In this document: positions 14,308 to 47,434 of the stretch, piece by piece
Numbering within the stretch: the stretch's first letter is position 1
Layout of the letters: every line of letters begins with the position of its first letter
The notes under the pieces: model-generated
Told to the model about the DNA's origin: nothing
Seen by the model: only the letters and a program-made list of their open reading frames with translations
Database searches by the model: none
Position numbers and translations under genes: made by a program
From: Sulfurimonadaceae bacterium
GTDB lineage: Bacteria > Campylobacterota > Campylobacteria > Campylobacterales > Sulfurimonadaceae
Length of the DNA: 53,350 bases
Assembly: GCA_041571435.1 (NCBI GenBank)
Contig: JBFFUI010000011.1
Location: 1 to 53,350, forward strand
Direction of reading: 5' to 3'

Positions 14308-14340
14308 CGTTAATCCTTTTTCTCTAGTTATAGTAGGGTA

Positions 14341-15711: not shown

Positions 15712-15724
<13 letters not shown>
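14783..15724 (-). CDS. pdxA: 4-hydroxythreonine-4-phosphate dehydrogenase
   Basis: Motifs GDINGVGIE, GLNPHAG, MYHDQG, RTSVDHGTAFDIA. Confidence 0.97.
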
Positions 15725-17665
<1,941 letters not shown>

Positions 17666-17794
17666 TTACCACATTCCTTACAGGAGGTAACGAATATGCT
17701 ACAATCATACCCTAAATAATACATTCGGGTTGATCAAGAGGCAGCATTTTAGAGTGCTCATCTGCGATATAGACCCGAGTCAATGATGGTGCAT

Positions 17795-19201
17795 ATGAAA
17801 AAGATTTTAATTATCAGTGACAGTAAGATCGGCCACAACTTCGTACAGCGGGCCATCGATACTTTTGCCAAAGATAACCTCTACTACGTGATCGAGACGA
17901 AAGCACGAGAGTATGAGAATGCACCAGCGTCGAGATTCAAGTTTTTCGAGTTTGATCCGACCAGCCTTTATAAACTGTCAAATGTTCTGAAAATGGAATT
18001 TGTACAGGTCTTCATCGCGATGAAAAACCCTGTCGATGTTGAACAGACGATAGCCAACATCCGTGTCACCAAAAAACAGCTTCGTATTATTGTCGTTGAC
18101 CATTGGGGTATGGACCTTCAACAGTACAATGTCGTGCAGATCAACACGACCGAGATACTTGCATCGCATCTGTTTGATTATCTGCCTAACGTACCGGTTG
18201 TTGCACAGAATGTGGGACTGGGTGAAGGCGAGATCATGGATGTCCTGGTCCCGTTTGGAAGCTCATTCGTCTATCGCCATGTTGGTGTTATCGAACAGAA
18301 AAACTGGCGCATTGTCGGGATATACAGGGGCGGAGAACTTATTTTGCCGGATGATCGAAAGATGATCCATCCCAATGACCAGCTCCTGCTGGTTGGTGAG
18401 CCCTCTGTGTTGAACTCTGTATACCGGGCTATCAAAAGAGAGATTGGCCAATTCCCACAGCCTTTTGGAACCAACCTCTATCTGTTTATCGATATGATCA
18501 AAGATGATGAAGATGAGATCATTTCTCTTTTGGACAAAGCGTTGACGGTGCATGAGAATTTCAGTAACCGGCTGATCGTCAAAATTTGCAATCCGAGCAG
18601 TATTGCGCTGCTCGAACAGATCAAAAGCAGGCGCAGTGAGCAGGTAGTTATTGATATAGACTATCAGCAAAGTTACATCGAAGATGTCGTGATCAATGAC
18701 GTCAAGCAGTATGATGTCGGTCTGATCATGGTCTCAGCCTATATGTTTGACAAAGATAAGATGCGAGAGATACTCTATGACGCCACTGTCCCTGTGCTTT
18801 CGCTTGCCAAACGCCCAATAGAGAAGATCAAAGATGCGGTTATTGTGATAAATGACAACAAAGACCTGGAGAAGATCTCAACGACTGTTTTTGACTTCTC
18901 TGCGCAGATGAGCTATAACATGGAGCTGCTGAAAAATGCAGATGAGGAGAGCAAAGAACAAGATGAGATCATTGAACACTATCAAAACCTTGCCGTGATC
19001 TTCTCTAAAAATATTCATGTCAACCTCCATTATGACAACCCGATACGCAAGCTCTCAAAACGTGAAAATTTCCTGCACTGTATCCCGTTTACCGAAAATG
19101 TTCTGGAGGATAAAAGCGCGACACTCTTTTCAACCAATATCGAGATGCTTTATCACCGTTTGAACCGCTATCATCAGCTCTTTATCCCGATCAAGATCTA
19201 G
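17795..19201 (+). CDS. COG3400 family TrkA-C (RCK) domain protein
   Basis: FDPTS and AQNVGLGEGEIM..VPFGSSF.YRH; position before aroB is typical of Campylobacterota. Confidence 0.85.
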   Translation: MKKILIISDSKIGHNFVQRAIDTFAKDNLYYVIETKAREYENAPASRFKFFEFDPTSLYKLSNVLKMEFVQVFIAMKNPVDVEQTIANIRVTKKQLRIIVVDHWGMDLQQYNVVQINTTEILASHLFDYLPNVPVVAQNVGLGEGEIMDVLVPFGSSFVYRHVGVIEQKNWRIVGIYRGGELILPDDRKMIHPNDQLLLVGEPSVLNSVYRAIKREIGQFPQPFGTNLYLFIDMIKDDEDEIISLLDKALTVHENFSNRLIVKICNPSSIALLEQIKSRRSEQVVIDIDYQQSYIEDVVINDVKQYDVGLIMVSAYMFDKDKMREILYDATVPVLSLAKRPIEKIKDAVIVINDNKDLEKISTTVFDFSAQMSYNMELLKNADEESKEQDEIIEHYQNLAVIFSKNIHVNLHYDNPIRKLSKRENFLHCIPFTENVLEDKSATLFSTNIEMLYHRLNRYHQLFIPIKI

Positions 19202-19324
19202 GTTTCCTGTGCGCGGGATGCACACTCGCGACAAAGCTTTTTCAACCGCCCGTTTATTCACTGTTTTTTAAGTTCCTGTAAAGTATTATATTTACTATAA
19301 TTTGCAAATATAATGGACCTCTAT

Positions 19325-20374
19325 ATGATCATCGATATCAACCTCAAAAAAGAGATCGATCTCTCCTATCAAGTGACGATAGCCCCGTTGCCGGAGCTCA
19401 CTTTTGACACCAAAGTCGCTATCGTGACCAACCCGACAGTTTCAACCCTGCATCTTGATTATCTGACCTCAAAGATCAAGGCCAAAGAGCTGCATGTCAT
19501 CACCGTACCGGATGGCGAAGAGTATAAGAACTGGCAGAGCATAGAGATGATCCTTGAAGGGATGTTTGAAGCACGCTTCAACCGAAACTCTCTTTTGATC
19601 GCTTTTGGCGGCGGCGTTATCGGCGATATGACAGGATTTGCGGCAAGTATCTATCAGCGCGGTATCAACTTTGTACAGATCCCGACGACACTCCTTGCGC
19701 AGGTAGATGCAAGTGTCGGCGGAAAGACCGGTTTCAACAACAAATACGGCAAAAACCTTGTGGGCGCCTTTCATCAACCGCAGGCAGTCTATGCTGATGC
19801 CCATTTTTTACAGACACTGCCCAAACGTGAATTTGCTGCCGGTGTCGCCGAGGTGGTAAAGATGGCCGTATGTTTTGATGCCGATTTCTTTTCCTGGCTG
19901 GAAAAGGCGGACCTCAATGACGAAAACCAACTTGCCGAGGCTGTCGCCAAGTCGGTTCAGACAAAGGCATGGGTGGTTGCCCAAGATGAAAAAGAGAGAG
20001 GACTGCGTGCCGCGCTCAATTACGGGCATACTTTCGGCCACGTGATCGAAAACGAGACAAACTATACCGGTTTCCTGCATGGCGAAGCCGTTGCCATTGG
20101 TATGGTTATGGCCAATGATACGGCCGTTGCTCTCGGCTGGATGAGCGAAGAGGAGGCTGAACGGGTGAAAGCACTTCTGCAGCACTATGGCCTGCCGACC
20201 TCATATGCCATCAAAGATGTCGAGCACTTTTATGAAACGTTCTATCTGGACAAAAAGAGTGCTGACAGTGCCATAACATTTATTATTCCAAGATCACTGG
20301 GCGGTGTGGAGATTACAGACAAAATCGATGCTTCTGTCATAAAAAAGGTGTTACAACAATATGCGGTCAACTAG
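19325..20374 (+). CDS. aroB: 3-dehydroquinate synthase
   Basis: Motifs GGGVIGD, PTTLLAQVDASVGGKT, LNYGHTFGH. Confidence 0.97.
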   Translation: MIIDINLKKEIDLSYQVTIAPLPELTFDTKVAIVTNPTVSTLHLDYLTSKIKAKELHVITVPDGEEYKNWQSIEMILEGMFEARFNRNSLLIAFGGGVIGDMTGFAASIYQRGINFVQIPTTLLAQVDASVGGKTGFNNKYGKNLVGAFHQPQAVYADAHFLQTLPKREFAAGVAEVVKMAVCFDADFFSWLEKADLNDENQLAEAVAKSVQTKAWVVAQDEKERGLRAALNYGHTFGHVIENETNYTGFLHGEAVAIGMVMANDTAVALGWMSEEEAERVKALLQHYGLPTSYAIKDVEHFYETFYLDKKSADSAITFIIPRSLGGVEITDKIDASVIKKVLQQYAVN

Positions 20375-22064
20375 TTTGCGGTTTTTACTTTCGATTTTAT
20401 TCCTTCAGGTCACTCTCAGTGCCGAGCCAACTGCAGTCACTGTGGATCAGAATGCCAGTGTTGACGACCACGTTGCCCAAGAGCTGTTGATCAAAGCCTC
20501 GATCGCTGAGAACGAACGCCTTATCCGTGAGAAGCGGATCGAGACGATCACACAGTTTCAGACCGAACTTGATGATATCAACAAGCAGTTGTCAAAAGAC
20601 AATATCTGGGAGAAGAGCTACAGTTCACATATTGCCTATTCCCAGGTACGGGATGATCTGGCGCAACTTCAGACAAAAATAAAGCAACTGAGCAAAAAAC
20701 GTTCGAAGAGCAGTGATGATGTCGAGATGCTTGAGGACCTTAGAAGTAAGGAGAAGATACTTTCCGAACAGTTTGAACTGCTTGACAGACAGCAAGGTAA
20801 GAGCTTGTTTGCCGCACTGCTACAGCCAGAAGAGATCGAAGAGATCCCGGTTCTCTCAAATCCGTTCGACATATTTACAGCGATCTCATTTATTAAACAT
20901 CTTGAAGAGATCTATGCCGACTATAACAAACGGGGTGTAGAACTTACCGATATCATCTCCCTTCTGCAGAAGAAGAAAGAACTTTTAGTCAACCTCAAAG
21001 CGATTAATGAAAATGGCGGGTATGACGAAGAGCTCAACGATACGACGCGTCGCTTGGACAAATTTACCAATGCACAGGATATTTTGAAGATCACTGCCAA
21101 TATCTATGACAAACGTATTGATGAGATCGAAGTCAAGGTCAACAAAGAGGTCCAGATACAGTTTTACAAGCTCAGTAAGATCGGTCTGATCATTCTGTTC
21201 CTCTTTGGCCTTGCCTTCTTCCTTAAGGTAATGAGCAAAAAATATATCACGGACAACGACCGTTTTTACATGGCCAATAAGGTGATTAACTTCGGAAACT
21301 TTATACTGATCATGATCATCGTGCTCTTTAGCTATATAGAGAATGTTTCGTATCTGGTCACCGTACTCGGTTTCGCTTCGGCGGGTATCGCCATTGCAAT
21401 GAAGGACTGGTTCATGTCGATGCTGGGGTGGCTGGTGATCGTCTTGGGCGGTTCGATTCATGTCGGTGACAGGATCCGTGTCGATATGGACGGTATGCAG
21501 TATGTCGGTGATATTATGGATATCTCACTGCTGCGGATGACCCTGCTCGAAGACATTACACTGACGACCTATATGGACAATAGACGTGCCGGCAGGATCG
21601 TCTTTATACCGAACAACTACGTCTTCACCCGTATGATCGCAAGTTATTCGCACGATTCGCTTAAGACGGTCTGGGACGGGATCGATGTGACAATCACCTT
21701 TGACTCTAACCACAAAAAAGCGATGCACATCGCCAGAGAGGCTGCGCGCAAATATTCGAAAGGGTATACCGACATCACGCGCAAGCAGTTAAACAAACTG
21801 CGCCACAAATACAGTCTTAAAAACACCAATGTCGAGCCGAGGATATTTTCGTTTATCGAACCAAACGGCATTAATGTCAGTGTCTGGTATTTGACAAACG
21901 CGTATGCGACCTTGACGTTGCGAAGTACGATTTCGACCGATATTATCGATGCGTTTAATCTGGAAGACGATATTACGATTGCATACCCAACACAACAGCT
22001 CAAACTCTCAATGGAGAAATCGAAACGCAGCCTCCCGCCGGAGCAGGGTGAGGAGCAGTCATGA
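20361..22064 (+). CDS. MscS-family mechanosensitive channel with periplasmic coiled-coil
   Basis: LGFASAGIAIAMKD, IHVGDRI, FIPN. Confidence 0.9.
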   Translation: MRSTSLRFLLSILFLQVTLSAEPTAVTVDQNASVDDHVAQELLIKASIAENERLIREKRIETITQFQTELDDINKQLSKDNIWEKSYSSHIAYSQVRDDLAQLQTKIKQLSKKRSKSSDDVEMLEDLRSKEKILSEQFELLDRQQGKSLFAALLQPEEIEEIPVLSNPFDIFTAISFIKHLEEIYADYNKRGVELTDIISLLQKKKELLVNLKAINENGGYDEELNDTTRRLDKFTNAQDILKITANIYDKRIDEIEVKVNKEVQIQFYKLSKIGLIILFLFGLAFFLKVMSKKYITDNDRFYMANKVINFGNFILIMIIVLFSYIENVSYLVTVLGFASAGIAIAMKDWFMSMLGWLVIVLGGSIHVGDRIRVDMDGMQYVGDIMDISLLRMTLLEDITLTTYMDNRRAGRIVFIPNNYVFTRMIASYSHDSLKTVWDGIDVTITFDSNHKKAMHIAREAARKYSKGYTDITRKQLNKLRHKYSLKNTNVEPRIFSFIEPNGINVSVWYLTNAYATLTLRSTISTDIIDAFNLEDDITIAYPTQQLKLSMEKSKRSLPPEQGEEQS

Positions 22065-23311
22065 AGCGCAAGGTCTATTTAAAAACATTCGGCTGCCGTA
22101 CCAACCTTTTTGACTCGCAGGTGATGATGAGCAATCTTAAAGATTTCGACATCACCGAAAATGAGGCAGAGGCTGATATTATCATCGTCAACTCATGTAC
22201 CGTCACCAACAGTGCCGATGTCGGTGTCCGCGGTTACATCAACAGTATTGAAAAAGCGGGCAAGGCGAAGGTCTATTTGACGGGATGCGGTGCCCATACC
22301 AAAGGTGAGTCTCTTTTTGAGAACAACAAGATTTTCGGTGTGTTCGGCCAGTCAGAAAAGGTAAAGATCAATTCTCTGCTCCAAGAGAAAGAACGTTTTT
22401 ATGAACTGGGCGATCTTGATTTTGTTGATGATACCATCGTGGAAGAGTTTGTGGGCAAGTCCCGCGCCTTTATCAAGATCCAGGAGGGGTGCGATTTTCG
22501 CTGTTCTTACTGTATCATTCCCTATGTCCGAGGTGACTCACGCTCTATGGATGAGGCCAAGATCCTTGAGCAGGTAACGACACTTGCTATCAACGGATTT
22601 GGCGAATTTATCCTGACCGGGACAAATGTCGGATCATACGGCCACAGAGAAGACCGCACACTTGCTTCGCTGCTTAAAAAGATGTCCCAGATCCGAGGGG
22701 TACGCCGTATACGTCTTGGATCGCTGGAACCGATCCAGATTTCAGAAGAGTTTGAGGAGCTGCTTGATGAACCCTGGTTGGAAAAGCACCTGCATATTGC
22801 GTTGCAGCATACCTCACCGACAATGCTTAAGATCATGAACCGACGCAACAAGTTTGAGAATGACATCGCGCTTTTCCAACGCCTGCGTGAGAGAGGCTTT
22901 GCATTGGGAACGGATTTTATTGTCGGTCATCCGGGTGAGACGGAGCAGTTATGGCAAGAGGCGATGCAAAACCTTAAAGGTCTGCCGTTGACCCATGTCC
23001 ATGCCTTTACGTACTCGAAACGTGACGGTACGCCATCGGCTACCATGAAAAATGAGGTGAACGGTGCTGTTGCAAAGGCCCGACTTAAAGAGTTGATAGA
23101 ACTTGTCGATCAGAACAACTATGCCTTTCGAAAAGAGTTTGCCCATCTCCCCCTAGAGGTCCTGATCGAGAGTGAAAAAGAGGGGCAGTACCATGGGCTG
23201 GACCAGTTCTTTAACAAGATCATCATCGATTCGACGAAAGATCTTCTCGGTAACTGGTTGAGTGTTGAGAACTATGAAGTCAAAAAAGGCGGTAACTATG
23301 TTCGACTCTAA
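22061..23311 (+). CDS. mtaB: tRNA t6A37 methylthiotransferase
   Basis: TFGCRTN, NSCTVT, CDFRCSYC. Confidence 0.92.
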   Translation: MKRKVYLKTFGCRTNLFDSQVMMSNLKDFDITENEAEADIIIVNSCTVTNSADVGVRGYINSIEKAGKAKVYLTGCGAHTKGESLFENNKIFGVFGQSEKVKINSLLQEKERFYELGDLDFVDDTIVEEFVGKSRAFIKIQEGCDFRCSYCIIPYVRGDSRSMDEAKILEQVTTLAINGFGEFILTGTNVGSYGHREDRTLASLLKKMSQIRGVRRIRLGSLEPIQISEEFEELLDEPWLEKHLHIALQHTSPTMLKIMNRRNKFENDIALFQRLRERGFALGTDFIVGHPGETEQLWQEAMQNLKGLPLTHVHAFTYSKRDGTPSATMKNEVNGAVAKARLKELIELVDQNNYAFRKEFAHLPLEVLIESEKEGQYHGLDQFFNKIIIDSTKDLLGNWLSVENYEVKKGGNYVRL

Positions 23312-24938
23312 ACAAAACCGTATTATTCTTATTGCATCTGCTGCTATCATCCTCGCGCTGGTTGCCTTTGCCGTTCTACGCGATACGTCTCAGGTCGCCT
23401 CTCTGACGAAGGTGACCGAACTTGTCAAAGCGAAAAAAATTGTGCATATCGTACAGGGTGAGGAGAACTACTACATCCAAACAGCCGATACGATCTATAG
23501 TATTCCCATCAGCCAGGTATCGCCACGACTGCTTAGAAATTACAGCATCGAAGTCGATAGCGACAGTACGGTCATTATCACGATCACACTGGTGATCATG
23601 GCATTGGCCGGACTCTCATACGGTGTGCGCTACTGGTTAAAGCTTGAGAGTGGGGCGTCAAACGAAGGGACGATCTTTAAAGCATCTTCGGCTTCGGGAA
23701 GCGGTGAAGGCGAGAACATTCTACCGGTTGAGTCTGATGTGACGTTCGATGATATTGGCGGTATTGCTGATGTTAAACAGGAACTTCAGGAGATCATTGT
23801 GTTTTTGCGTAATCCATCACGTTTCAAGAGCTTTGGTGCACGTATGCCGCGAGGGGTTCTACTGGTCGGTCCTCCCGGTGTCGGTAAGACAATGATCGCC
23901 AAAGCTGTTGCGGCTGAAGCCGGTGTGCCTTTTTATTATCAGAGTGCAGCCTCATTTGTCCAGATTTATGTCGGAATGGGTGCCAAACGTGTGCACGAAC
24001 TTTTTACAGCGGCGAAAAACAACTCCCCGGCGATCATCTTTATCGATGAGATCGATGCCGTGGGTAAAAAACGTGACGGCAACCGCTCTGATGAGCGTGA
24101 GGGGACACTCAACCAGCTTCTGACGGAGATGGACGGTTTTGAGGACAGCAGCGGTGTTATCGTTGTCGCCGCTACTAACAAGATCGAAGTTCTAGATGAT
24201 GCCTTGCTACGTGCAGGGCGTTTTGACAGACGTGTTTTTGTTGAGCTTCCGACACCCACAGAACGCGAAGCGATCATTCACAAATATCTCTCAAAGGTGC
24301 CAAATAGTGCCGATGTCGACGAGATCGTACATATGAGTGTCGGTTTCAATGGGGCAGCCCTGGCGACACTAGTCAACGAAGCTGCCTTGTTGGCCTTGCG
24401 TGAGAAGGCGATGCAGGTCACGATGGAACACTTTTATGCGGTCAAAGACAAAGTCGCTTACGGCAAAAAGAAACTGGCCATCCTGTCACCGCAGCAGAAA
24501 CAGTTCAGAGCACGCTATCTGGCTTCAAAAGCGGTCCTTGCCTATACGAATGACCTCTCGTTTGAGAAGGTGATGCTCTCTTCCGAAACGATCAAACCGC
24601 AGTTGGATGCACCGATGATCCAAAGTGAGATAGAAGTGCGTATCAAGGTTCTGCTCGCAGGTATGGCCGGTTGTGATATCCATTTTGATCAGCATGCGAC
24701 CAATGTCAACAGCGACCTGAGTCATGCCAAGCGACTTGCATTGGAGATGGTAACACTGTACGGGATGGGCAAAAGTGTTGCTGCTTCAGCCGGTGAGGAT
24801 GCCGCTATTTTAGACAAGCTGTATGATCAGACAAAAAGCCAGCTTGGCCAATACGAGAGTGCAATCGCTGCAATTGAAGCGGTCTTGATGGAGAAAGAGG
24901 CGATCACCAAAGAGCATATCGGCGAGTTGATAGGCTGA
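23298..24938 (+). CDS. FtsH-like membrane AAA+ ATPase lacking HEXXH
   Basis: GPPGVGKT, IFIDE, NQLLTEMDGF, RAGRFDR; the zinc-site region reads RARYLASKA. Confidence 0.9.
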   Translation: MFDSKQNRIILIASAAIILALVAFAVLRDTSQVASLTKVTELVKAKKIVHIVQGEENYYIQTADTIYSIPISQVSPRLLRNYSIEVDSDSTVIITITLVIMALAGLSYGVRYWLKLESGASNEGTIFKASSASGSGEGENILPVESDVTFDDIGGIADVKQELQEIIVFLRNPSRFKSFGARMPRGVLLVGPPGVGKTMIAKAVAAEAGVPFYYQSAASFVQIYVGMGAKRVHELFTAAKNNSPAIIFIDEIDAVGKKRDGNRSDEREGTLNQLLTEMDGFEDSSGVIVVAATNKIEVLDDALLRAGRFDRRVFVELPTPTEREAIIHKYLSKVPNSADVDEIVHMSVGFNGAALATLVNEAALLALREKAMQVTMEHFYAVKDKVAYGKKKLAILSPQQKQFRARYLASKAVLAYTNDLSFEKVMLSSETIKPQLDAPMIQSEIEVRIKVLLAGMAGCDIHFDQHATNVNSDLSHAKRLALEMVTLYGMGKSVAASAGEDAAILDKLYDQTKSQLGQYESAIAAIEAVLMEKEAITKEHIGELIG

Positions 24939-24940
24939 TA

Positions 24941-25450
24941 ATGTACTTTAACGGTTTCGCGCTTCAAGATGAAGCTCACTTTTTTGACACTATCTTGGAG
25001 CATGGACAATACGTCATCAGCGGTTTCAGTTACGGTGCTATCAAAGCGTTTGAAGAGGCAATTAGCAGCACTACCCGCGTCGACAAACTGCAGCTTATCT
25101 CTCCAGCATTTTTTCAAAGTAAACCTGAAAAATTTAAACGCCTTCAGCTGATGGGCTATAAAAAAGACAGCAACACGTATCTGGAAAAATTTACAGCGAA
25201 CTGTTTTCTGCCCTACGATGTTCGAGCGCTACATTACCGCGTGCACAGTGTTGAAGAGCTGGAAGAGCTTTTACACTATGTGTGGGATACTGATGTGCTT
25301 CAAAAGCTTGTCAGCAAAGGGACCCGCATTGAGGTCTATTTAGGCGATCAGGACAAGATAAGCGATGTCGGAGCGGCCTACGACTTTTTTTTGCCTTTTG
25401 CAACGGTAACGTTGATCAAAGGTGCCAACCATTTTTTACAAGGAGAATAA
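24941..25450 (+). CDS. bioV: Pimeloyl-ACP methyl ester esterase BioV
   Basis: YFNGF, GFSYG, LQLISPAFF, GANH. Confidence 0.88.
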   Translation: MYFNGFALQDEAHFFDTILEHGQYVISGFSYGAIKAFEEAISSTTRVDKLQLISPAFFQSKPEKFKRLQLMGYKKDSNTYLEKFTANCFLPYDVRALHYRVHSVEELEELLHYVWDTDVLQKLVSKGTRIEVYLGDQDKISDVGAAYDFFLPFATVTLIKGANHFLQGE

Positions 25451-25453
25451 GAT

Positions 25454-25987
25454 ATGAGCCAGATCAAGATAGGTGTTATTACGGCATCTGACAGAGCCAG
25501 CGCAGGGATATATGAAGATATATCAGGGATGGCGATACAAGAGACGATGAAAGCGTATTTGACCAGTGAATTTGAGATCGAGTATCGCTGTATACCAGAT
25601 GAACAGTCGACGATCGAAGAGACGATGAAAGATCTGTGTGACGAAGCAGGTTGTTGCCTTGTTGTCACGACCGGCGGAACGGGTCCTGCACTGCGCGATG
25701 TCACACCTGAAGCGACAGAAAATGTCTGTCAAAAGATGATGCCCGGTTTTGGTGAGCTAATGCGCCAGGTCTCACTGCAGTATGTACCGACGGCGATTCT
25801 GTCACGCCAAACGGCGGGTATCCGCGGTCAATCACTGATCATCAACCTTCCGGGCAAACCCAAATCGATACGCGAGTGTCTTGATGCGGTCTTTCCGGCC
25901 GTGCCATACTGCATCGATCTGATAGAGGGGCCCTACCTGGAGTGTGACGAGAGTGTCATCAAAGCGTTCCGCCCAAAGGCAAAATAG
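25454..25987 (+). CDS. mog: Molybdopterin adenylyltransferase
   Basis: SDRAS.G.YED, TTGGTGP, DVTPEAT, NLPGKP. Confidence 0.96.
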   Translation: MSQIKIGVITASDRASAGIYEDISGMAIQETMKAYLTSEFEIEYRCIPDEQSTIEETMKDLCDEAGCCLVVTTGGTGPALRDVTPEATENVCQKMMPGFGELMRQVSLQYVPTAILSRQTAGIRGQSLIINLPGKPKSIRECLDAVFPAVPYCIDLIEGPYLECDESVIKAFRPKAK

Positions 25988-26031
25988 GTACGCTAGGAAT
26001 CTGCTCTGATCATCAAGGCAATAGCGATGAG

Positions 26032-26808
26032 CTATAAAGCCAGGCGTATTCCGACCGGACAGTGGTCCGAACCTTCGATCTCCTGGAGTATGAATGCATC
26101 TTCCAGTACTTCGGCCAGATCATCGGAGATAAAGAAGTAGTCGATCCTCCATCCGACGTTCTTGGCCCGAGCGCCGGAGCGGTAGGACCACCAGCTGTAC
26201 TCCTCTTCTTTGTTGCCATGGACATATCGGAAGGTGTCGATGTAGCCGCTCTGTATCAGACGGTCAATCCATTCGCGTTCAATAGGCAAAAAGCCAGACG
26301 TTTTTGAATTGGCCTTCGGGTTTTTGAGGTCGATCTCACGGTGGGCGGTGTTGACGTCACCGCAGATGATGATAGATTTTCCTTCTTCGCGTAGTTTGTC
26401 GCAGTACTCCAGGAAGTCTTCATAAAACTGCATTTTCAGCGCCAGGCGGATATCGTCTTTCTGACCGTTAGGAAAATAGACGTTAAAGAGCACAAAATCG
26501 CCGTAATCCTGCTCAACGATACGTCCTTCATGTGCCAGGTCGATATCGTAACGATTGTCCGTGTAGTTCGGATCCAGTGTGGAGTAGGTGGCTGTCCCGG
26601 AGTAGCCTTTCTTCTCAGCGCTGTTGACAGCAAGTGAGCTGTATTTGAATTCAAACATATCTGTCGGTATCTGATCGTAGGTCGCTTTGATCTCCTGTAG
26701 ACATAAGATGTCCGGTTGACGTTCGTCGATCCATTTAAGTGCTTCTTTGTTAGCAACGGCGCGGATACCGTTGACATTCCATGAAATTATCTCGATACTA
26801 TCTGCCAT
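26032..26808 (-). CDS. xth: Exodeoxyribonuclease III
   Basis: SWNVNG, LQEIK, GDVNTAH, GWRIDY, SDHCP. Confidence 0.96.
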   Translation of the reverse strand: MADSIEIISWNVNGIRAVANKEALKWIDERQPDILCLQEIKATYDQIPTDMFEFKYSSLAVNSAEKKGYSGTATYSTLDPNYTDNRYDIDLAHEGRIVEQDYGDFVLFNVYFPNGQKDDIRLALKMQFYEDFLEYCDKLREEGKSIIICGDVNTAHREIDLKNPKANSKTSGFLPIEREWIDRLIQSGYIDTFRYVHGNKEEEYSWWSYRSGARAKNVGWRIDYFFISDDLAEVLEDAFILQEIEGSDHCPVGIRLAL

Positions 26809-26971
26809 ATAAATTCCTGCTATTCTATTGTTGGCATATTTTACAATCTAAAACTATGAATTTTCTTACTGTTCTCTCTCAGGGTAGAAAATGCGTCAAA
26901 TACGCGCGATTTGGAAAATGGAGAGGTGCTCTGTTTGGAGTAGAATGCAAGCTTGTTTGCTATGCTTGAGC

Positions 26972-27763
26972 TTAAAAAAGAAAGCTCTCTTTCATATGTT
27001 CTTCAATGTCGTGCAGGTCAAATGCGGCATGGATAAAGTGGTTGCTGGCAAGGATACCCTGTCCCAGCAGCATGTCCGCACCGTCTTTGGTCGTGACGTT
27101 CAACTCTTTTGAGAGTTTTAGAAAAGGTGTCTCTTTACCGTAGATAACATCGGCACTGAAAGCGGCTCTCTGCAGCAGCAGTTTGAGCGTCCCGATAGGA
27201 GCAGGGTAGCTGTCGTCTTCCAGACCGGCAGAGGTGGTGTTGACAATAAGATCGTATGCTTCGATCTTTATACTGTCCCAGGTCTCCGTTTTGAAGCCCA
27301 CTTTTTTGAATGGCTCAAGACGACCGGCTGATCGGTTCAACACGGTCACATCTGCTCCTTCGTCTTTGAAACGTGTCGAGAGTGCTTTGGACGTGCCGCC
27401 GGCACCGATGATGAGTACACGCTCTATTTTGCCGAAGGGGGCGATGGCATAGAGAAAGCCGTCGGCATCTGTGTTGTAACCGATAAGTTTTCCATCTTCA
27501 TTGACGATGGTATTGACAACGCCGATCTTCTTGGCAAATCCGCGGATCTCGTCACAGGCTTTGAAGGCTGCCTCTTTATGGGGTACAGTAACATTGGCAC
27601 CGCAGAGACCCAGCTTGAAAAAAGTCTCACGCAGTTTTGTGCCGTCTGTAAGATGGACACGCGTATAGCAGGCCTTGATACCGAGCGATTTGAATACATG
27701 GTTGTGCATCAACGGGGAGCGCGAGTGGGCTACAGGGTCACCGAAGATGGCAAAGAATTTCAT
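26972..27763 (-). CDS. aroE: Shikimate dehydrogenase
   Basis: HSRSP, NVTVPHK, NTD, GAGG. Confidence 0.96.
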   Translation of the reverse strand: MKFFAIFGDPVAHSRSPLMHNHVFKSLGIKACYTRVHLTDGTKLRETFFKLGLCGANVTVPHKEAAFKACDEIRGFAKKIGVVNTIVNEDGKLIGYNTDADGFLYAIAPFGKIERVLIIGAGGTSKALSTRFKDEGADVTVLNRSAGRLEPFKKVGFKTETWDSIKIEAYDLIVNTTSAGLEDDSYPAPIGTLKLLLQRAAFSADVIYGKETPFLKLSKELNVTTKDGADMLLGQGILASNHFIHAAFDLHDIEEHMKESFLF

Positions 27764-29172
27764 TTTATCTCTTTAAGATCATTCAACGAGCTGACAAGCG
27801 CGCCGAGCTTGTTGTGTACCTCCAGATACTCCATCTCGGGTACAGAGTCGGCTACGATGCCGGCACCGGCCTGCAGGATGACCTGGTCCGGTTTGACCAG
27901 TGCGGTACGGATCGTGATAGCGGAGTCCATATTACCGTCAAAACCGAAGTAACCGACAGAACCGCTGTAAAAGCCGCGCTTGAGTCCTTCGAATTCGGCG
28001 ATGAGCTCCATGGCACGGATCTTTGGTGCACCGGTCATCGTACCGGCCGTGAAGGTTGCCGCAAAGAGGTCAAACATATCTTTGTCGTCACGCAGCTTTG
28101 CAACAACGTCTGTGACGATGTGCATGACATGCGAATAGCGCTCAATATGCATCATGTTCTCGACCTTGACCGTGCCTGTCTTGGCGACACGGCCCACATC
28201 GTTACGACCGAGGTCGATAAGCATAAGATGTTCTGCCAGCTCTTTAGGATCAGCCAAAAGTTCATCTTCCATAGCCTTATCCTGCTCTTTTGTCTTGCCG
28301 CGTTTTCGCGTACCGGCAATAGGGCGTAGCAGCAGCTCTCCCTCAGTCAATCGTACCATCACCTCTGGCGATGAGCCGACAATACTGAAGGCTTCAAACT
28401 CCATCAAAAACATATAAGGCGACGGGTTTTTAGTCCGCAGGATCCTGTAGAAAGAGAAAGGGTCCACCTCTACATTTCGCGTAAATCTGTTGGTCATAAG
28501 TATCTGGAAGACATCGCCGCTTTTGATCATCTCTTTAGACTTGGCGACCATGTCGAAGAATGTCTCTTTGGAGAAGGCGAAGGAACCTTCATCTTCACCA
28601 ACAAGCGGTTTTAACGGTGTGTAGTTATAAGCAGATTTCAGATCGGCCTCGATCTCGTCAAAATGTTCTTCGAACCCTTCGGCCAAGGTCAGCAGTGTGA
28701 TCTGATGGTCTTTGTGGGAGTAGACGGCAACCATCTTAGGCAAAACCAGGTCAAGGTCAGGTACGTCCATTGTGTCTTCGAGTTTGTCCATGTAACGTGC
28801 AAGTACGGGCTCGAACACTTTGACCATGTCATAGCCGATATAGCCGATAAAACCGTCAACGTAGCCGAGTCCGAGCGTTTTGGTGTACTCTTTGTATTTC
28901 TGCGTGTCGATCTTGTTGTAGTACTCTTTCAAAAATGCAAAAGGGGAGCCGTCTATGGTCTCCTGAGAGCCCAGCGCATCGGTATAGGTCGTTACGTTAC
29001 CTTTGTATTGAAGACGCTCTCTTGCGCCGATAATGACAATTGAGTAGTTGCCTTCGGAACCGCCGGCACTTTCAAAGAGAAAACTGATCTCATCGCTGAA
29101 CCGTGTTTTAAGCTTTTCATAAACCGCGATCGGTGCGAACTGATCGAGCATAAAATGTTGTGTTTTGATCAC
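27760..29172 (-). CDS. trpE: Anthranilate synthase component I
   Basis: NPSPY, SSPE, PIAGT, AEHLMLIDLGRND, TGAPK. Confidence 0.93.
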   Translation of the reverse strand: MIKTQHFMLDQFAPIAVYEKLKTRFSDEISFLFESAGGSEGNYSIVIIGARERLQYKGNVTTYTDALGSQETIDGSPFAFLKEYYNKIDTQKYKEYTKTLGLGYVDGFIGYIGYDMVKVFEPVLARYMDKLEDTMDVPDLDLVLPKMVAVYSHKDHQITLLTLAEGFEEHFDEIEADLKSAYNYTPLKPLVGEDEGSFAFSKETFFDMVAKSKEMIKSGDVFQILMTNRFTRNVEVDPFSFYRILRTKNPSPYMFLMEFEAFSIVGSSPEVMVRLTEGELLLRPIAGTRKRGKTKEQDKAMEDELLADPKELAEHLMLIDLGRNDVGRVAKTGTVKVENMMHIERYSHVMHIVTDVVAKLRDDKDMFDLFAATFTAGTMTGAPKIRAMELIAEFEGLKRGFYSGSVGYFGFDGNMDSAITIRTALVKPDQVILQAGAGIVADSVPEMEYLEVHNKLGALVSSLNDLKEIK

Positions 29173-29181
29173 AGTGACCCT

Positions 29182-29991
29182 TTAGAGTTTAATAAGAAAC
29201 GCGCCCGGCTCAACGCTCTTTTTGATAATAGGAAGTGCCTCGCGTGCAGCCGACTGCGTTTTAAATGGTCCGACAAGGACCTTGTTCAAGGTCTTACCGC
29301 CGCGCGTAACCTTGTGGTAGGTATAGGTATAACCGCGATTTGTAATCTTGGCTAAAAAGGCTTTGGATGGTTCATATTTTGCAAATGAACCAACCTGAAC
29401 ATAGTATTTACCGTATTGAGCTTCCGTTTTATGCTTCTGTACGACTTGTTTGCTTTTCGGATCATATTTTCCGGAAGGACGTACTGGTTTTGGCTTAAGC
29501 ACCTGTTTCGGTTCAGCTTTTTGTACCGGTTTCGGCGGAACACTCTTAGGCTTGGTCGTTGTCGTATAGACAGGCTCTTCGATAATCTCAGGCTCTTCAA
29601 AAGCAGTTTCATAGATACGGTGTGTTTCATCTTTGCCATCAGGTGTTTTAGAGACTTCCTTCTGTTGAACATCGACGGGCGCTTCACTCTCGACAGGGGT
29701 ACTCTCTTCGACCGGTTCATTTACAGGTTCGCTTACCGGTTCATTAACCGCAATAGGCTCTTCAACTACGTTGAACTCAGGTTCTTCAACCACCTCTTCA
29801 ACCACTACTTCGCTCATTTTCGGAGCATGTGGAAGAGCGGACTCTTTTTTCCCGCTGAACTGGTTCATGATGACGACCACGATGATCAGGATAATAGCAA
29901 AAGTGGCCACTGTCAAGAGGATCTTTTTGGTATTGTTTCCTTTGGAGTGTTTGTTCAAGATGATGTCATTGAGTCCGTTTTTCTCGTCCAT
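29182..29991 (-). CDS. SPOR-domain cell division protein (FtsN/DedD-like)
   Basis: N-terminal TM, Pro/Glu linker, YYVQVGSF...VLVGPF. Confidence 0.9.
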   Translation of the reverse strand: MDEKNGLNDIILNKHSKGNNTKKILLTVATFAIILIIVVVIMNQFSGKKESALPHAPKMSEVVVEEVVEEPEFNVVEEPIAVNEPVSEPVNEPVEESTPVESEAPVDVQQKEVSKTPDGKDETHRIYETAFEEPEIIEEPVYTTTTKPKSVPPKPVQKAEPKQVLKPKPVRPSGKYDPKSKQVVQKHKTEAQYGKYYVQVGSFAKYEPSKAFLAKITNRGYTYTYHKVTRGGKTLNKVLVGPFKTQSAAREALPIIKKSVEPGAFLIKL

Positions 29992-43315: not shown

Positions 43316-43341
43316 TTCTCTACACACTGCAGCAATTAAAA

Positions 43342-43439
43342 ATCTGCAGAAAACAAGTGCCGTAAACATAGAGTGTTCTACGCGAGTTTTCCCTACCATG
43401 ACACTTTGTATTGATTGCCATAATTCAGAACCCTTATGA
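43342..43439 (+). pseudogene. Possible decayed DksA/TraR C4 zinc-finger fragment
   Basis: Reads ...SAVNIECSTRVFPTMTLCIDCHN*, with an upstream Cys codon in an adjacent frame. Confidence 0.35.
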
Positions 43440-43605
43440 CTATACAGGATAAGAAAAACGTATATTTACATATATGAAATATCATTGGTGTTACGTTTAT
43501 ACGCAGGCCTCTAGAGCTCAACAGCTTCCTGAAAGAGAAATAAAACGATCTGAAATTAAAAATCAAACAGTGAAAAATTTCGTCTTTACACCTGTTCTAA
43601 TTCTT

Positions 43606-43633
43606 ACAAGCCCCTATATTTAGGAGCTTTCAC
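43606..43633. repeat. Imperfect palindrome, copy 2
   Basis: acaagcccctatatttaggagctttcac. Confidence 0.55.
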
Positions 43634-43963
43634 ACTGTAATATGAAAATGAAAAAAATTTTATTTCATAACTTATAATAATATAATATATCAAACTTAAT
43701 GTAAAAAATATTTATCACATAAAAATCACAAATATAACAAAATAGATGGTCGTATCACGCATATTGATGATTTTATTTTAGACTTTCTCCGTTAGCTTGA
43801 ATGACAGGCTTATACAACCATAAATTCACTTATTGCTTGACATTAGAACGAAAAGAGCGATATCGTATGGAAATCTATGATAACAACGTTGATCAATCTA
43901 AGTTCTAAGATAGAGTTTATAAGATATATTGATAGTCGAAACCAAATCAAAAGGGAAACCAAC

Positions 43964-45385
43964 ATGGAAATGAATCGTCGTAATTTACTTAAACTCGGAG
44001 CTGTCAGTGCTGCTGCGACAGTAACTGGTGTGGCCTTATCGGGTTGTTCAAAAGAGGCTGAAGCTGCTGCACCTGCACCTGCGGCGGCTGCACCTGCACC
44101 TGAACTTATTGGTAAGCATAGTGTTGTCGTCATCGGTGGAGGTATCGGTGGTCTGACTGTTGCCAACAACCTCAAAAAGATGCGTAATAATACGGACATC
44201 TTGGTGATCGAAAAAAATGACACCTTTATGTCATGTCCAGTTTCAAACACCTACCTTGGCAAACTCAAAGGTATGGACCTTGGTACATTCATTTTTGATT
44301 ATGCGCAGCCTATTGAAAAACACGGTTACAACTGGTTAACAGCAGAAGTACAGGGTATTGATAGAGAGGCTAAGGTTGTCCACACGACGAAAGGTGCTGT
44401 AGGTTATGACATCCTGGTACTTTCTCCAGGTATTGCATATAACTATGAAGCACAATTCCCGACATGGTCAAAAGAGAAAATCGCACATGTGAAACGTGTT
44501 GCTCCAGCGGCACTTATCCCTGGGCACGAACACGTTATCTTAGAGCGCAACCTTAACAACATGGAGGATGGTGACGTTATCATTACTATCCCTGGCGGTA
44601 AGTTCCGTTGTCCACCGGCACCGGCTGAACGTGCCTCTATGGTTGCAACATTCATGAAAAAAGAGGAGATTGAAGGTAAGGTCATCTTGATGGCTGAAGG
44701 CGACTCTTTTGCGAAGAAAGCAGCCTTTATGGAATCATGGCAAGAGCTTTTCGGCGATAAAATCGTATTCATGCCACATACAAAAGTCGTTGATGTTGAT
44801 CCTGATGCTAAGAAAGTAACGTATGAGAAACAAGTCGGTACTGGTAAAAAAGATGAACTTGGTGATGAAATCATGAAGGCAGAAACGGCTACACTTGACT
44901 ATCAGGTCCTCAATCTCATACCTCTTAACAAAGCCAATCCAGTGATCGAAATGGCTGGCCTGGATATCACCAAAGATACATTCGGAAAAGTCAAGATGGC
45001 AGGTTGTACATTCCAGACGGCATCTGATGTGAACGTATTTGCAGTCGGTGACGTTGTTGGTCACGCTATCCCGCCAAGTGGCCAAACTGCTAACTGGGCT
45101 GGTAAACAGTGCGCTAAAGAGATCGCAGCGCGTCTTGATGGCGGTTCGTACAAACTTCCAGTCGAATCAACACCTGTATCTGCCGGTAATGTCTGTTACT
45201 CAATGGTCGGTGATAATCCGGAAGAGGCGATCATGGTTACACATGACTTTAGCTGGACGGGTACAGTTATTAAAGGTAAGGGTAATGTCCCTAAAGATGC
45301 TGCTTCGGGTAAATTCCGTTCTAAAGGTACGGCGAAAGCACTTCGTGACTGGTATCGTGGTCTAATGGGTGATCTTTTCGCCTAA
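43964..45385 (+). CDS. fccB: Flavocytochrome c sulfide dehydrogenase flavoprotein (FccB/SoxF-like), Tat lipoprotein
   Basis: NRRNLLK Tat motif, LSG-C lipobox, Ala/Pro linker, GGGIGG, CPVSN (FAD-linking Cys), FRCPPAP.ERAS and NVCYS (catalytic Cys pair). Confidence 0.85.
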   Translation: MEMNRRNLLKLGAVSAAATVTGVALSGCSKEAEAAAPAPAAAAPAPELIGKHSVVVIGGGIGGLTVANNLKKMRNNTDILVIEKNDTFMSCPVSNTYLGKLKGMDLGTFIFDYAQPIEKHGYNWLTAEVQGIDREAKVVHTTKGAVGYDILVLSPGIAYNYEAQFPTWSKEKIAHVKRVAPAALIPGHEHVILERNLNNMEDGDVIITIPGGKFRCPPAPAERASMVATFMKKEEIEGKVILMAEGDSFAKKAAFMESWQELFGDKIVFMPHTKVVDVDPDAKKVTYEKQVGTGKKDELGDEIMKAETATLDYQVLNLIPLNKANPVIEMAGLDITKDTFGKVKMAGCTFQTASDVNVFAVGDVVGHAIPPSGQTANWAGKQCAKEIAARLDGGSYKLPVESTPVSAGNVCYSMVGDNPEEAIMVTHDFSWTGTVIKGKGNVPKDAASGKFRSKGTAKALRDWYRGLMGDLFA

Positions 45386-45420
45386 GACGTAAAATTGCGG
45401 TGTTCGTACCGCGACAATAT

Positions 45421-45448
45421 CGCCAAAAAGTACCTACTTTTGGCGTTT
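45421..45448 (+). terminator. Hairpin/terminator after fccB
   Basis: CGCCAAAA-N9-TTTTGGCG then TTT, preceded by a GCGGTG-TTCG-TACCGC hairpin. Confidence 0.6.
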
Positions 45449-45575
45449 ATGTTATGCTATTATAGACACTTCATAAGTTCCTAAAAAAGTCACAACAACT
45501 GAATAACTTCGCAGATTATGTAAAAGGTGGTTTTTTTAGAGACTTAGTGTCTCAATAATTTTTTTAGGAAACGTA

Positions 45576-46304
45576 ATGAATCGAAGAAATTTTTTAAAAG
45601 TCGCGACTGCCACAGGCGCAATGATCGCCGTTTCACCTTCATCTATCATACAAAAGCTCTATGCCAGCAACGGTTTGATGTATACTGCATACGAACGTGT
45701 TCAGTTGGTAGACGCCGCCGGTCAACCGATCAAAACAAGTGCTTTGAAGAAAGAGACGAATTACATGTTTAACTACCCGCACGTAGGTACACCCGCAATG
45801 CTTCTGGACCTTGATGAGCCGAGTGCACAGGATGTTAAACTCGCTACGGAGTCCGGTGAAGAGTATTTGTGGAAAAGCGGTGTCGGCGCCAAGCACACTA
45901 TCGTTGCGTATTCTGCTATCTGTTCTCATCAGCTTGCCCACCCGACGCCAAGTGACAGTTTTTTGCAGTATGTACAAAAAGATAAGAAGACCATGGCCTA
46001 CAAACACAGTGGTGTCATCGTCTGTTCGTCGCACCTCTCGTCCTTTGAGGCAAAAGAGGGAGCCAAGCGTCTTTCCGGGCCAGCCGTCGACCCATTGGCC
46101 TCAATCGTGCTTGAAGTAGCAGCAGATGATACTATATGGGCAGTAGGTGTTCTTGGTGCGGACCGTTTTCACGAATATTTTAAGGCCTTTAAACCTGAAC
46201 TAAAAGAGTTCTATGGCGGTAAACGCAAGGCCAAGAAACTTGTTAAGATTAGTGCTAAAACAGTGGTGTTAAGCGAATACACCAAAGAGATCATCCAATA
46301 TTAA
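45576..46304 (+). CDS. Tat-exported Rieske [2Fe-2S] protein (AioB-like fold)
   Basis: NRRNFLK; GVG...IVAYSAI-CSH-x31-CSSH; SGPA; these are the only two Cys in the protein. Confidence 0.88.
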   Translation: MNRRNFLKVATATGAMIAVSPSSIIQKLYASNGLMYTAYERVQLVDAAGQPIKTSALKKETNYMFNYPHVGTPAMLLDLDEPSAQDVKLATESGEEYLWKSGVGAKHTIVAYSAICSHQLAHPTPSDSFLQYVQKDKKTMAYKHSGVIVCSSHLSSFEAKEGAKRLSGPAVDPLASIVLEVAADDTIWAVGVLGADRFHEYFKAFKPELKEFYGGKRKAKKLVKISAKTVVLSEYTKEIIQY

Positions 46305-46313
46305 AGAGGAATT

Positions 46314-46724
46314 ATGAAAAAGTTTAAATCAATTACGGTAGCTCTGTTACTCACAATCACAATCTCTTCGAGTGCAGACGATAAACAAAAAAGTTTACTT
46401 CAAAATGATATGCGCTCCATGTTGAGTGCAATGGAGATGATCCAACGCGGCGGTTTTTATAAAAACAAGCCGGGTCTGCAAGAAGGTGTCAGACGTCTTA
46501 AAGAGGGCCTGAAATCACTTCGCTCAAGTGACGCAAAAAAATATCTACCTGAAAATCAGGCCTACGCTGACAGATTTGCACACAAACGTGCCGATATGAT
46601 CGCAATGTTTGCAGATGATATTCTTGTCTCTATAGAAAAAGACAATTGGGATGACTCTCTGAATGATTATCAACAGATTCTAAGTCAGTGTACATCGTGC
46701 CATCTGCGTATCCGTTCTTGGTAA
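46314..46724 (+). CDS. Secreted monoheme class II (c'/c556-like) cytochrome c
   Basis: Signal peptide, helical body, C-terminal CTSCH. Confidence 0.85.
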   Translation: MKKFKSITVALLLTITISSSADDKQKSLLQNDMRSMLSAMEMIQRGGFYKNKPGLQEGVRRLKEGLKSLRSSDAKKYLPENQAYADRFAHKRADMIAMFADDILVSIEKDNWDDSLNDYQQILSQCTSCHLRIRSW

Positions 46725-46879
46725 TACGGTCTTATTGAGAGCAATGCTCACAATAAAGGAACGATAATGCTTTTTCTCTTATGACTTCCAATAAACTTAC
46801 CGCTACCTATTAACATTATACGATTGGCCGATTGCACTTTTTTTGCTAAAATTTGCTGACATTGATTCGAGGAAAGAGT

Positions 46880-47434
46880 ATGATTGAAGACAAAGCACGC
46901 TGGAATGAGAAATATATCGCGATGTGGACACCTGACAAGGTGGCAAAGATTGTCGAGAAGTATATCCCGCTCGCAACCGTCGGTACAGCACTTGATATTG
47001 CAGCAGGTACAGGCCGAAACACACATTTTCTAGCCGAGAAAGGCTTTATCATTGATGCAATCGACTATTCGGACTATGCGCTCTCCAAGATCAAAGATAT
47101 TGCGACGATCAACAAAATAGACACTGATCTGGAATCATACAGATTTTCTTATAACAGTTATGACCTGATTGTTAATTGCAACTATCTTGACCGCAGACAG
47201 TTCCCGCAGATCAAAGAGGCATTAAAAGAGGGCGGTCTGCTGATATATGAGACCTTTTTAGTGGCACACGGCGAAGGGTACCATCAACCGAGCAACCTTG
47301 ACTTTTTGCTTCGCAAGAATGAGCTGCTGCATGCCTTTATCAGTTTGGATGTCATCTATTATGAAGAGAGAGATGATGTCAATCTCCGGGGTGAGAAGGT
47401 CAAAGTTGCATCCCTTGTAGCGCGCAAGGCATAA
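46880..47434 (+). CDS. TehB-like SAM-dependent methyltransferase
   Basis: D..RWN.KY, ALDIAAGTGRN, NYLDR, LL..NELL. Confidence 0.88.
   Translation: MIEDKARWNEKYIAMWTPDKVAKIVEKYIPLATVGTALDIAAGTGRNTHFLAEKGFIIDAIDYSDYALSKIKDIATINKIDTDLESYRFSYNSYDLIVNCNYLDRRQFPQIKEALKEGGLLIYETFLVAHGEGYHQPSNLDFLLRKNELLHAFISLDVIYYEERDDVNLRGEKVKVASLVARKA

Follow-up and report, generated by a model that had tools for sequence, protein, structure and literature searches.

An FccB-type flavoprotein of a Sulfurimonadaceae bacterium with a Rieske protein and a cytochrome c of class II type as proposed partners in place of FccA

The canonical flavocytochrome c sulfide dehydrogenases (FCSD) are the FccAB complexes, represented by the structures 1FCD, 3VRD and 5N1T, in which the flavin subunit FccB is paired with a haem subunit, FccA, a class I mono- or dihaem cytochrome. 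In this report we describe a variant of FccAB that is encoded in a 53-kb stretch (the window) of contig C11 from a Sulfurimonadaceae bacterium, the genome assembly of which comprises 2.16 Mb in 66 contigs. According to the open reading frame (ORF) calls, three co-oriented genes on the forward strand encode a flavoprotein of 473 aa, a Rieske protein of 242 aa and a haem protein of 136 aa, and in this trio the Rieske protein and the class II-type cytochrome occupy the place of FccA. We propose, with a probability of about 0.58, that the three genes form one periplasmic, membrane-tethered sulfide-oxidising module in which the Rieske protein replaces FccA and electrons are passed on to cytochrome c.

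Parts of this arrangement have been recorded before, as the accessible text of several sources shows. A review by Han and Perner (2015) reported no flavocytochrome c (FCC) genes in Sulfurimonas (PMC4584964). Molari et al. (2023) then described previously unnoticed fccB genes in this genus, all of them without fccA and each adjoining a gene annotated as aioB, and proposed the aioB-like Rieske protein to carry electrons for fccB (PMC10066037, Supplementary Note 2). The same authors described two fccB clusters and a high transcription in S. pluma, where fccB reached 3601 transcripts per million (TPM) in a supplementary table, and suggested that the non-canonical fccB of S. pluma may replace sulfide:quinone oxidoreductase (SQR). 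The window shares with this 'non-canonical FCC' both the fccB gene without fccA and the adjacent aioB-like Rieske gene, whereas the accessible portions of that paper make no mention of a four-helix cytochrome, a lipobox, a docking model, gene-order statistics or a module type with SoxYZ. For an Aquificae bacterium, Tamazawa et al. (2012) depicted a gene cluster with the order flavocytochrome-dhsU1-Rieske-dhsU2-sox (PMC3504083). In this Sulfurihydrogenibium-like dhsU cluster an FccB-like sulfide dehydrogenase gene, with the same FCSD cysteines, adjoins Rieske and sox genes; it differs in the extra flavocytochrome ORF upstream and in the phylum, and the likeness is one of published description. 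An initial reading of the window made from the DNA letters (the sequence-only reading) had taken the arrangement to be unrecognised, and this claim could not be upheld, since fccB with an aioB-like Rieske gene and without fccA had already been proposed (PMC10066037) and the dhsU-Rieske-dhsU-sox order had been drawn (PMC3504083). Relative to the accessible text of these papers, the conserved cytochrome, the Tat-lipoprotein anchor of FccB, the docking model and the SoxYZ-bearing module type are new here. The FccB-Rieske idea is in print as a hypothesis that appears never to have been bench-tested, and a literature search on the whole trio, which left most subscription journals uncovered so that earlier biochemistry on Aquifex homologues could exist, found nothing further.

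The sequence-only reading had described three co-oriented genes for exported proteins, namely a flavoprotein with the FCSD cysteine set, a Rieske protein with a twin-arginine translocation (Tat) signal and the motif CSH-x31-CSSH and, 9 nt downstream of it, a class II cytochrome c with a C-terminal CTSCH, with a hairpin between the fccB and Rieske genes and with no diheme FccA in the cluster. The coordinates, the orientation and the motifs were confirmed by ORF and domain calls, and the features of the locus are as follows.

43964..45385, + strand: FAD flavoprotein of the FccB/SoxF type, FCSD family, module type A, 473 aa (Pfam, PDB matches, invariant cysteines)
43964..44047, + strand: twin-arginine signal with R5-R6 and, at its end, the lipobox L25-S26-G27-C28, followed by an Ala/Pro-rich linker (sequence reading, Pfam TAT_signal)
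45386..45575, + strand: spacer with three hairpins (folding, comparison with close relatives)
45576..46304, + strand: Tat-exported AioB-like Rieske [2Fe-2S] protein with a basic C-terminal tail, 242 aa (Pfam, invariant ligands, fold match)
46314..46724, + strand: Sec-exported monohaem four-helix-bundle cytochrome c, divergent class II, 136 aa (AlphaFold2 model, Foldseek, C126xxC129H130)
43837..43866, + strand: tentative promoter-like site, TTGACA, 18 nt, TATCGT (consensus scan only, 10/12 matches)

The longest frame of the flavoprotein ORF opens at 43877, and the start at 43964 (MEMNRR) is backed by the N-termini of all aligned homologues. The Rieske gene stops at 46304 and the cytochrome gene starts at 46314, which gives the 9-nt gap as first read.

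The flavoprotein matched the two FCSD-specific Pfam domains, FCSD_central (PF21706, 91.1 bits with a cut-off of 27) and FCSD-flav_bind (PF09242, 30 bits with a cut-off of 26). Its best sequence matches in the PDB were FCSD flavin subunits, with 5N1T (E 8.8e-45) followed by 1FCD and 3VRD, and SQR chains ranked far below them. In the alignments with 1FCD and 5N1T, residues C91, C216 and C411 are matched with Cys42, Cys161 and Cys337 in the Allochromatium numbering, so that C91 is the equivalent of the cysteine that links the flavin adenine dinucleotide (FAD) and C216/C411 are the equivalents of the redox pair Cys161/Cys337. All three residues were invariant in the 28 aligned homologues (28/28), which bears out the FCSD cysteine set of the sequence-only reading. 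Hence the window flavoprotein has the FCSD-specific domains, the FAD-linking cysteine and the redox-active cysteine pair in common with FccAB, although it is low in identity to the solved FccB chains (E 8.8e-45 to 4e-37). The sole other gene of the FccB/SQR superfamily found with the flavoprotein as query (C1:88318-89763 in the source genome, L032:1423-2865) is closest to type III SQR, with an NCBIfam score of 187.7 bits at a cut-off of 525.

Tat export is likewise common to FccAB and the window flavoprotein, the Pfam TAT_signal match of which scored 21.9 bits, slightly below the cut-off of 22.7 bits. The lipobox cysteine was present in at least 90% of the rows of the flavoprotein homologue alignment. 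Among the 70 flavoprotein loci with a complete N-terminus, 62 encode both the arginine pair and the lipobox, and the remaining 8 have a Tat signal without the cysteine. Since the Tat signal ends in a lipobox followed by an Ala/Pro linker, and since the arginine pair with the lipobox recurs in 62/70 loci, the flavoprotein is probably tethered to the membrane by a Tat-lipoprotein anchor, as judged from these N-terminal motifs. The Allochromatium FCSD is soluble, and the lipobox and linker, with the membrane tether that they predict, set the window flavoprotein apart from FccAB. It is also unlike FccAB in that its gene has no neighbour for a class I mono- or dihaem FccA, the proposed partner being a Rieske [2Fe-2S] protein, followed by a class II-type cytochrome.

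The Rieske protein matched the Pfam Rieske domain (21.2 bits, cut-off 20.3) as well as a TAT signal. Its cluster ligands are found in C116-S-H118 and C150-S-S-H153, where 31 residues separate H118 and C150, exactly the spacing first read, and the ligands C116, H118, C150 and H153 were invariant in 28/28 homologues. In the AlphaFold2 model (AF2; mean predicted local distance difference test score, pLDDT, 85.6) the best fold matches were AioB chains (E ~3e-8, template modelling score, TM, 0.76-0.85 on the target), followed by the Rieske protein SoxF of Sulfolobus. The affinity to AioB was also seen in sequence searches, in agreement with the fold match and with the AioB-like label given at the outset.

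AioB (1G8J/1G8K, 4AAY, 8ED4) thus has the fold closest to that of the window Rieske protein, and both have a Tat signal. AioB also offers a precedent for electron transfer from a Rieske protein to cytochrome c, as the entry title of 8ED4 names a complex of arsenite oxidase with cytochrome c552, its electron acceptor. There are several differences. The proposed catalytic partner of the window protein is a flavoprotein and not the molybdopterin subunit AioA, and the window protein is ~100 residues longer than AioB and ends in a basic, conserved tail (residues 195-242) for which AioB has no counterpart. The positions of the bc1/b6f-type disulfide are Ala and Ser in the window protein, and a cysteine occurs at either position in 0 of 79 homologues, so that the disulfide cysteines are missing in 79/79. 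In addition, the score for the NCBIfam family arsenite_ox_S (TIGR02694) was 41.9, below the cut-off of 95.65. A motif scan of all ORFs in the genome found one other credible Rieske ORF, which is petA-like and lies beside cytochrome c1 on contig C26. In a search of 1.84 billion cluster representatives the Rieske family comprised 87, 265 and 559 of them at E <=1e-30, 1e-10 and 1e-3, respectively, and no fusion of FccB and Rieske was found, as none of the best 150 of the 559 profile matches exceeded 381 aa.

The third protein contains a single C126-T-S-C129-H130 motif six residues before its C-terminus, and in 72/72 of its homologues there is one CxxCH, also at the C-terminal end. The AF2 model (pLDDT 83) consists of four long helices in a bundle, and the natural proteins ranked highest by Foldseek were cytochrome b562/cb562 together with a number of cytochromes c' (E 0.02-0.1, TM 0.6-0.78). 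The window cytochrome therefore resembles the class II cytochromes (c', c556) and b562 in its four-helix bundle and the class II cytochromes in the C-terminal place of its haem motif. Unlike them it had no significant match in Pfam or NCBIfam and none to PF01322 (Cytochrom_C_2) at E up to 1, and the Foldseek E-values are just 0.02-0.1. Across the family, weak PF01322 matches were obtained for 18/22 members (best E 0.0019, none at the gathering score), PF01322 was present on 37% of the members of one look-alike Atlas cluster, and one JGI homologue is named cytochrome c556. A sequence search of PDB chains with the cytochrome alone gave chance-level matches only; in a profile search of the PDB the best match (E 0.43) was to the CxxCH end of an engineered cytochrome cb562. 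The class II cytochrome c of the sequence-only reading is, on the modelled fold and the motif position, a fair label for what would be a divergent member. In low-spin class II members a methionine serves as the sixth haem ligand. Two methionines of helix 1, M33 and M40, are invariant here and could be candidates for this ligand, which would make the cytochrome low-spin like c556 or b562.

No class I FccA or SoxE lies adjacent to the flavoprotein gene, and within the cluster a haem motif occurs in one ORF, that of the 136-aa four-helix protein, so that the stated lack of a diheme FccA stands. Elsewhere in the genome there are four two-haem ORFs, which are CCP, cytochrome c1, CcoP and an unassigned 389-aa class I dihaem protein on contig C23. 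A cbb3 oxidase is also encoded (ccoN, 687 bits).

Whether related genomes keep fccB linked with the genes for the Rieske protein and the cytochrome had been named beforehand as a test of the module, and such linkage was found in two surveys. In the first, 16 of 41 related genomes had a Rieske homologue at E <=0.001; these include the source genome itself and one weak partial match (E 2.4e-4), and the other 14 loci were examined. An FccB-like gene was located directly upstream of the Rieske gene in all 14 (14/14), and a cytochrome match was obtained in 10/14. The wider survey used the Rieske protein as the probe on one genome per species and reached at least 389 relatives, from which the best 79 loci were analysed. 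The best 80 matches were nearly all from Campylobacterota, and the Aquificota homologues named in PMC10066037 and PMC3504083 lie outside this set. Within 3.5 kb and on the same strand, an FccB-like gene was present in 75/79 loci (in L090 the contig ends, and the other three misses are true absences), and a cytochrome gene was present in 72/79, the misses being two contig ends and five real absences.

With F for the FccB-like, R for the Rieske, C for the cytochrome and Y/Z for the SoxY/SoxZ genes, the gene orders in these 79 loci were F-R-C in 63, F-R in 4, R-C in 3, R-F in 2, R-C-F in 1, F-R-Y-Z-C in 2, R-C-F-Y-Z in 2, F-Y-Z-R-C in 1 and R alone in 1. The gap between the Rieske and cytochrome genes was mostly 7-31 nt, and that between the FccB and Rieske genes was 17-580 nt. 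The linkage of the trio is not due to chance, and since it outlasts the rearrangement of gene order, selection on linkage or co-expression can be argued. In a sample of 301 high-quality Campylobacterota genomes, 21 genomes from 14 of 57 genera have the Rieske gene; within the same 301 genomes it was found in 0 of 214 genomes of the two largest families sampled.

There are two paralogous module types in Campylobacterota. Type A is the F-R-C arrangement of the window, and type B has SoxY and SoxZ inside the cluster. The flavoproteins of the best 79 loci were of type A in 63 cases and of type B in 12. Type B flavoproteins are ~31-38% identical to the window protein, while their adjacent Rieske proteins are still 50-62% identical. 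SoxY and SoxZ were inserted in 5/79 loci, each time beside a type B FccB; in the loci L022 and L027 the Pfam scores were 94 and 86 bits for SoxY and 87 and 75 bits for SoxZ. One locus (L059:1867-8198, counted under R-C-F-Y-Z and type B) contains tandem modules, F(A)-R-C and then F(B)-R-Y-Z-C. A reading of this locus as two flavoproteins that share one Rieske-cytochrome pair was ruled out, as the tandem modules are both complete, and the presence of a Rieske and a cytochrome gene in each of them underlines that the trio is a unit. Just 5' of the type B flavoprotein gene, a protein of ~560 aa with an FGE-sulfatase (SUMF1-like) domain is encoded in two loci (L027:3953-5662 and L028:9008-10684), and one of these two proteins also gave a weak match to a caspase domain.

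The interface between FccB and the Rieske protein that the sequence-only reading implied was examined by complex prediction with mature FccB (residues 48-473) and the Rieske protein (residues 31-242), with alignments for both and with three controls. The score, which expresses the confidence of the model itself and is not a measurement of binding, had a median of 0.68 (runs 0.80, 0.67 and 0.68), as against 0.00 for all three controls, and the prediction passed. Of 157 solved complexes 116 had attained the mark for a pass, as had 2 of 215 mismatched pairs, a calibration that is rough here, as our own alignments were used. The runs shared at least 97% of their contacts, and the pLDDT of the partner was at least 91. 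The prediction thus supports binding between FccB and the Rieske protein and speaks for the proposed interface. A solved complex of this sort between a flavoprotein and a Rieske protein is not known to us, and for this reason a pass through memory of the model seems unlikely.

On the Rieske side, the predicted contacts involve the cluster loops 118-121 and 151-154, including the ligand His153, together with the last residues 238 and 240-242. On the FccB side they involve residues 374, 404-410 and 454-473, including Q374, V410 and W463, and the lowest predicted error was obtained for the pairs of Trp463 with Ser152/His153. From the PDB alignments, Q374 and V410 are the equivalents of Tyr306 and Thr336 in Allochromatium FccB, and W463 is the equivalent of Trp391 in the end-anchored alignments with 3VRD and 5N1T. 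These three FccB positions lie between FAD and the haem subunit in canonical flavocytochrome c, according to the accessible text of PMC12010331. That text prints the Allochromatium residues as Tyr306, Thr366 and Trp336 and gives Tyr305, Thr335 and Trp390 for its own enzyme; because of the +1 offset from Thr335 and Trp390, we read the last two positions as 336 and 391. The Rieske protein is therefore docked, in the model, at positions that FccAB also has, and its iron-sulfur tip is predicted to be placed where the haem of FccA sits. The residues singled out by the docking model are Trp463 in FccB and, in the Rieske protein, His153 and the five C-terminal residues.

In the mechanism that we propose for the sulfide-oxidising module, the lipid-anchored FccB-type flavoprotein would oxidise sulfide at the Cys216/Cys411 disulfide and the covalent FAD, as expected from its family. 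The AioB-like Rieske protein is predicted to stand in for the haem subunit FccA; its [2Fe-2S] tip, including His153, would dock near Trp463 at the FAD exit port of FccB, and its C-terminal tail would clamp the last FccB helix. By way of the Trp463 region, FAD could then pass electrons singly to the [2Fe-2S] cluster. As the conserved, tight spacing of the Rieske and cytochrome genes and the AioB-to-cytochrome c precedent suggest, the cluster would in turn reduce the four-helix cytochrome, from which electrons may reach the cytochrome c pool and the cbb3 oxidase encoded in the genome. The observation made in the sequence-only reading is confirmed, and within the reach of sequence, synteny and structure prediction its interpretation is supported. 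A broader formulation is held more tentatively, its chances being a little short of even. It states that this would be the first Rieske protein to act as the dedicated partner of a flavoprotein dehydrogenase, that a lipid-anchored three-component sulfide:cytochrome c oxidoreductase would replace FccA throughout environmental Campylobacterota, and that in a sister form of the same wiring, with SoxYZ as an integral part, carrier-bound sulfur would be connected directly to the cytochrome c pool.

Several points weigh against the module as proposed. The role of the cytochrome in the chain is taken from gene adjacency, the complex prediction having covered the FccB-Rieske pair, and sulfide as the substrate is taken from the family of the flavoprotein. 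The complex score, as said, reports the model's own confidence. Conservation of the predicted interface showed no enrichment in FccB (0.670 vs 0.671 elsewhere) and was just slightly higher in the Rieske protein (0.797 vs 0.732), where 472 of 10000 random sets reach 0.797. In three loci (L049, L055 and L075) the 6 kb around the Rieske gene contain no FccB, and five (L086, L093, L101, L110 and L075) have no cytochrome gene nearby. Finally, the 190-nt spacer with a terminator-like hairpin makes the co-transcription of fccB and the Rieske gene uncertain in this organism.

The same complex could act on another substrate, such as SoxY-persulfide, polysulfide or thiosulfate-derived sulfane, in a SoxF-like supporting role and not on free sulfide. 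SoxY and SoxZ inside the type B clusters (by Pfam in L022 and L027), their recurrence in 5/79 loci always beside a type B FccB, and the dhsU-Rieske-dhsU-soxXYZAB cluster in the accessible text of PMC3504083 all point in this direction. However, SoxYZ was scored beside 0 of the 63 loci of type A, the type of the window (L059 being counted as type B), the identity of ~31-38% between the two types of flavoprotein means that their substrates may differ, and all three sulfide-site cysteines of FCSD are retained, so that we consider another substrate unlikely for the window module, if still worth keeping in view. It is less probable again, in our judgement, that the three proteins are neighbours without forming a complex, with FccB feeding quinone or another soluble cytochrome c and the Rieske-cytochrome pair serving a different enzyme. 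The Rieske-cytochrome gap is tight where the FccB-Rieske gap is looser, L049 and L055 pair a Rieske gene with a cytochrome gene but have no FccB in the surrounding 6 kb, the 389-aa dihaem class I cytochrome on contig C23 is an alternative partner candidate, and direct quinone reduction was also left possible by the authors of PMC10066037 in its accessible text. These observations are set against a linkage that outlasts several rearrangements of gene order, a complex prediction that passes while the controls score 0.00, and the finding that, among the loci examined, the Rieske gene has no other recurrent neighbour that would be a candidate for its catalytic partner.

That the trio works backwards and reduces sulfur or polysulfide with electrons from the cytochrome c pool, for example in sulfur disproportionation, is very improbable. 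With potentials far above that of the S0/HS- couple, c-type cytochromes and AioB/bc1-type Rieske clusters are poor donors for sulfur reduction, and no reductase-type partner is present in the cluster. In favour of this direction, a Sulfurovum gene for a 'sulfide dehydrogenase (Sudh/Fcc)', possibly a member of the present family, is up under sulfur disproportionation in the accessible text of PMC13609358. We give hardly any credence to the Rieske gene as an arsenite oxidase small subunit, a name that some homologues have in databases and that would suit AioB as the best fold match. The search for AioA in the source genome found none above the cut-off (best TIGR02693 match 28 bits vs 359), the arsenite_ox_S score was 41.9 vs a cut-off of 95.65, and the constant neighbour is FccB and no molybdoenzyme. 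For the source genome this assignment is refuted, barring an AioA in an assembly gap.

Sulfurimonas and related bacteria are the dominant sulfide oxidisers of marine redoxclines and hydrothermal plumes. If the proposed module is real, sulfide electrons would enter at the level of cytochrome c through a Rieske centre, which would change the energy yield in models of these organisms. The range of Rieske partners, so far cytochrome b, AioA and oxygenases, would be extended to a flavoprotein, and marker-gene surveys for 'fccAB' would miss or misread the module.

The spacer between the fccB and Rieske genes is 190 nt long. The sequence-only reading noted one hairpin in it, and three were found, at 45397-45412, at 45421-45446 (then TTTAT) and at 45539-45553 (then AATAATTTTT, a T-rich run). 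The minimum free energy (MFE) of the spacer was -46.1 kcal/mol vs a shuffle mean of -34.4 kcal/mol (z = -2.9), and 1 of 200 shuffles folded as well. The stems keep their pairing despite base changes in the four close relatives L017-L020, and in more distant relatives the spacer is shorter (17-130 nt). From its predicted folding, the spacer could plausibly be a partial terminator or a processing site that sets the subunit ratio. The sequencing runs listed for 43800-46800 were marine metagenome DNA runs, several of which may be the source sample, and no RNA run was among them.

The genes on both sides of the trio are housekeeping genes, among them hisG, a type III pantothenate kinase, two S-adenosylmethionine (SAM) methyltransferases and a YgiQ-type radical SAM protein. 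The window locus does not lie in a sox cluster, and because of these flanking genes on both sides the trio is not part of a sulfur island in the source genome. SoxY (PF13501) and SoxB (TIGR04486) were not found in the source assembly. A C-terminal fragment of SoxZ is located at the first bases of contig C5 (L113:1-135), with unrelated genes after it. The idea that the genome has no Sox system was dropped on account of this fragment, and since it sits at the very contig edge, an assembly gap probably interrupts a sox cluster there.

Upstream of the flavoprotein gene, an AT-rich stretch of ~650 nt (43316-43963) has no ORF of at least 90 aa kept in the greedy ORF pick. It is unusually long for a compact genome and may contain regulatory sites or a small RNA. 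The promoter-like site at 43837..43866 is ~100 nt 5' of the flavoprotein start, and 10 such sites occur in the upstream region vs 9.9 expected from shuffled sequence. Directly 3' of the cytochrome gene, a TehB-like SAM methyltransferase (46853-47434, Pfam TehB E 7.3e-9) is kept in the closest relatives L017-L020. Elsewhere in the window, a 1238-aa signalling protein with FIST, PAS, GGDEF and EAL domains is encoded at 6604-10317. Outside the window, CxxCH-rich ORFs with 4, 10, 4, 11 and 8 motifs were found on contig C1 (~12160-29580), and further ones with 12 motifs (C5:68338-70722) and 7 motifs (C10:27035-29413); they represent a putative multihaem cytochrome cluster of the kind used in extracellular or mineral electron transfer.

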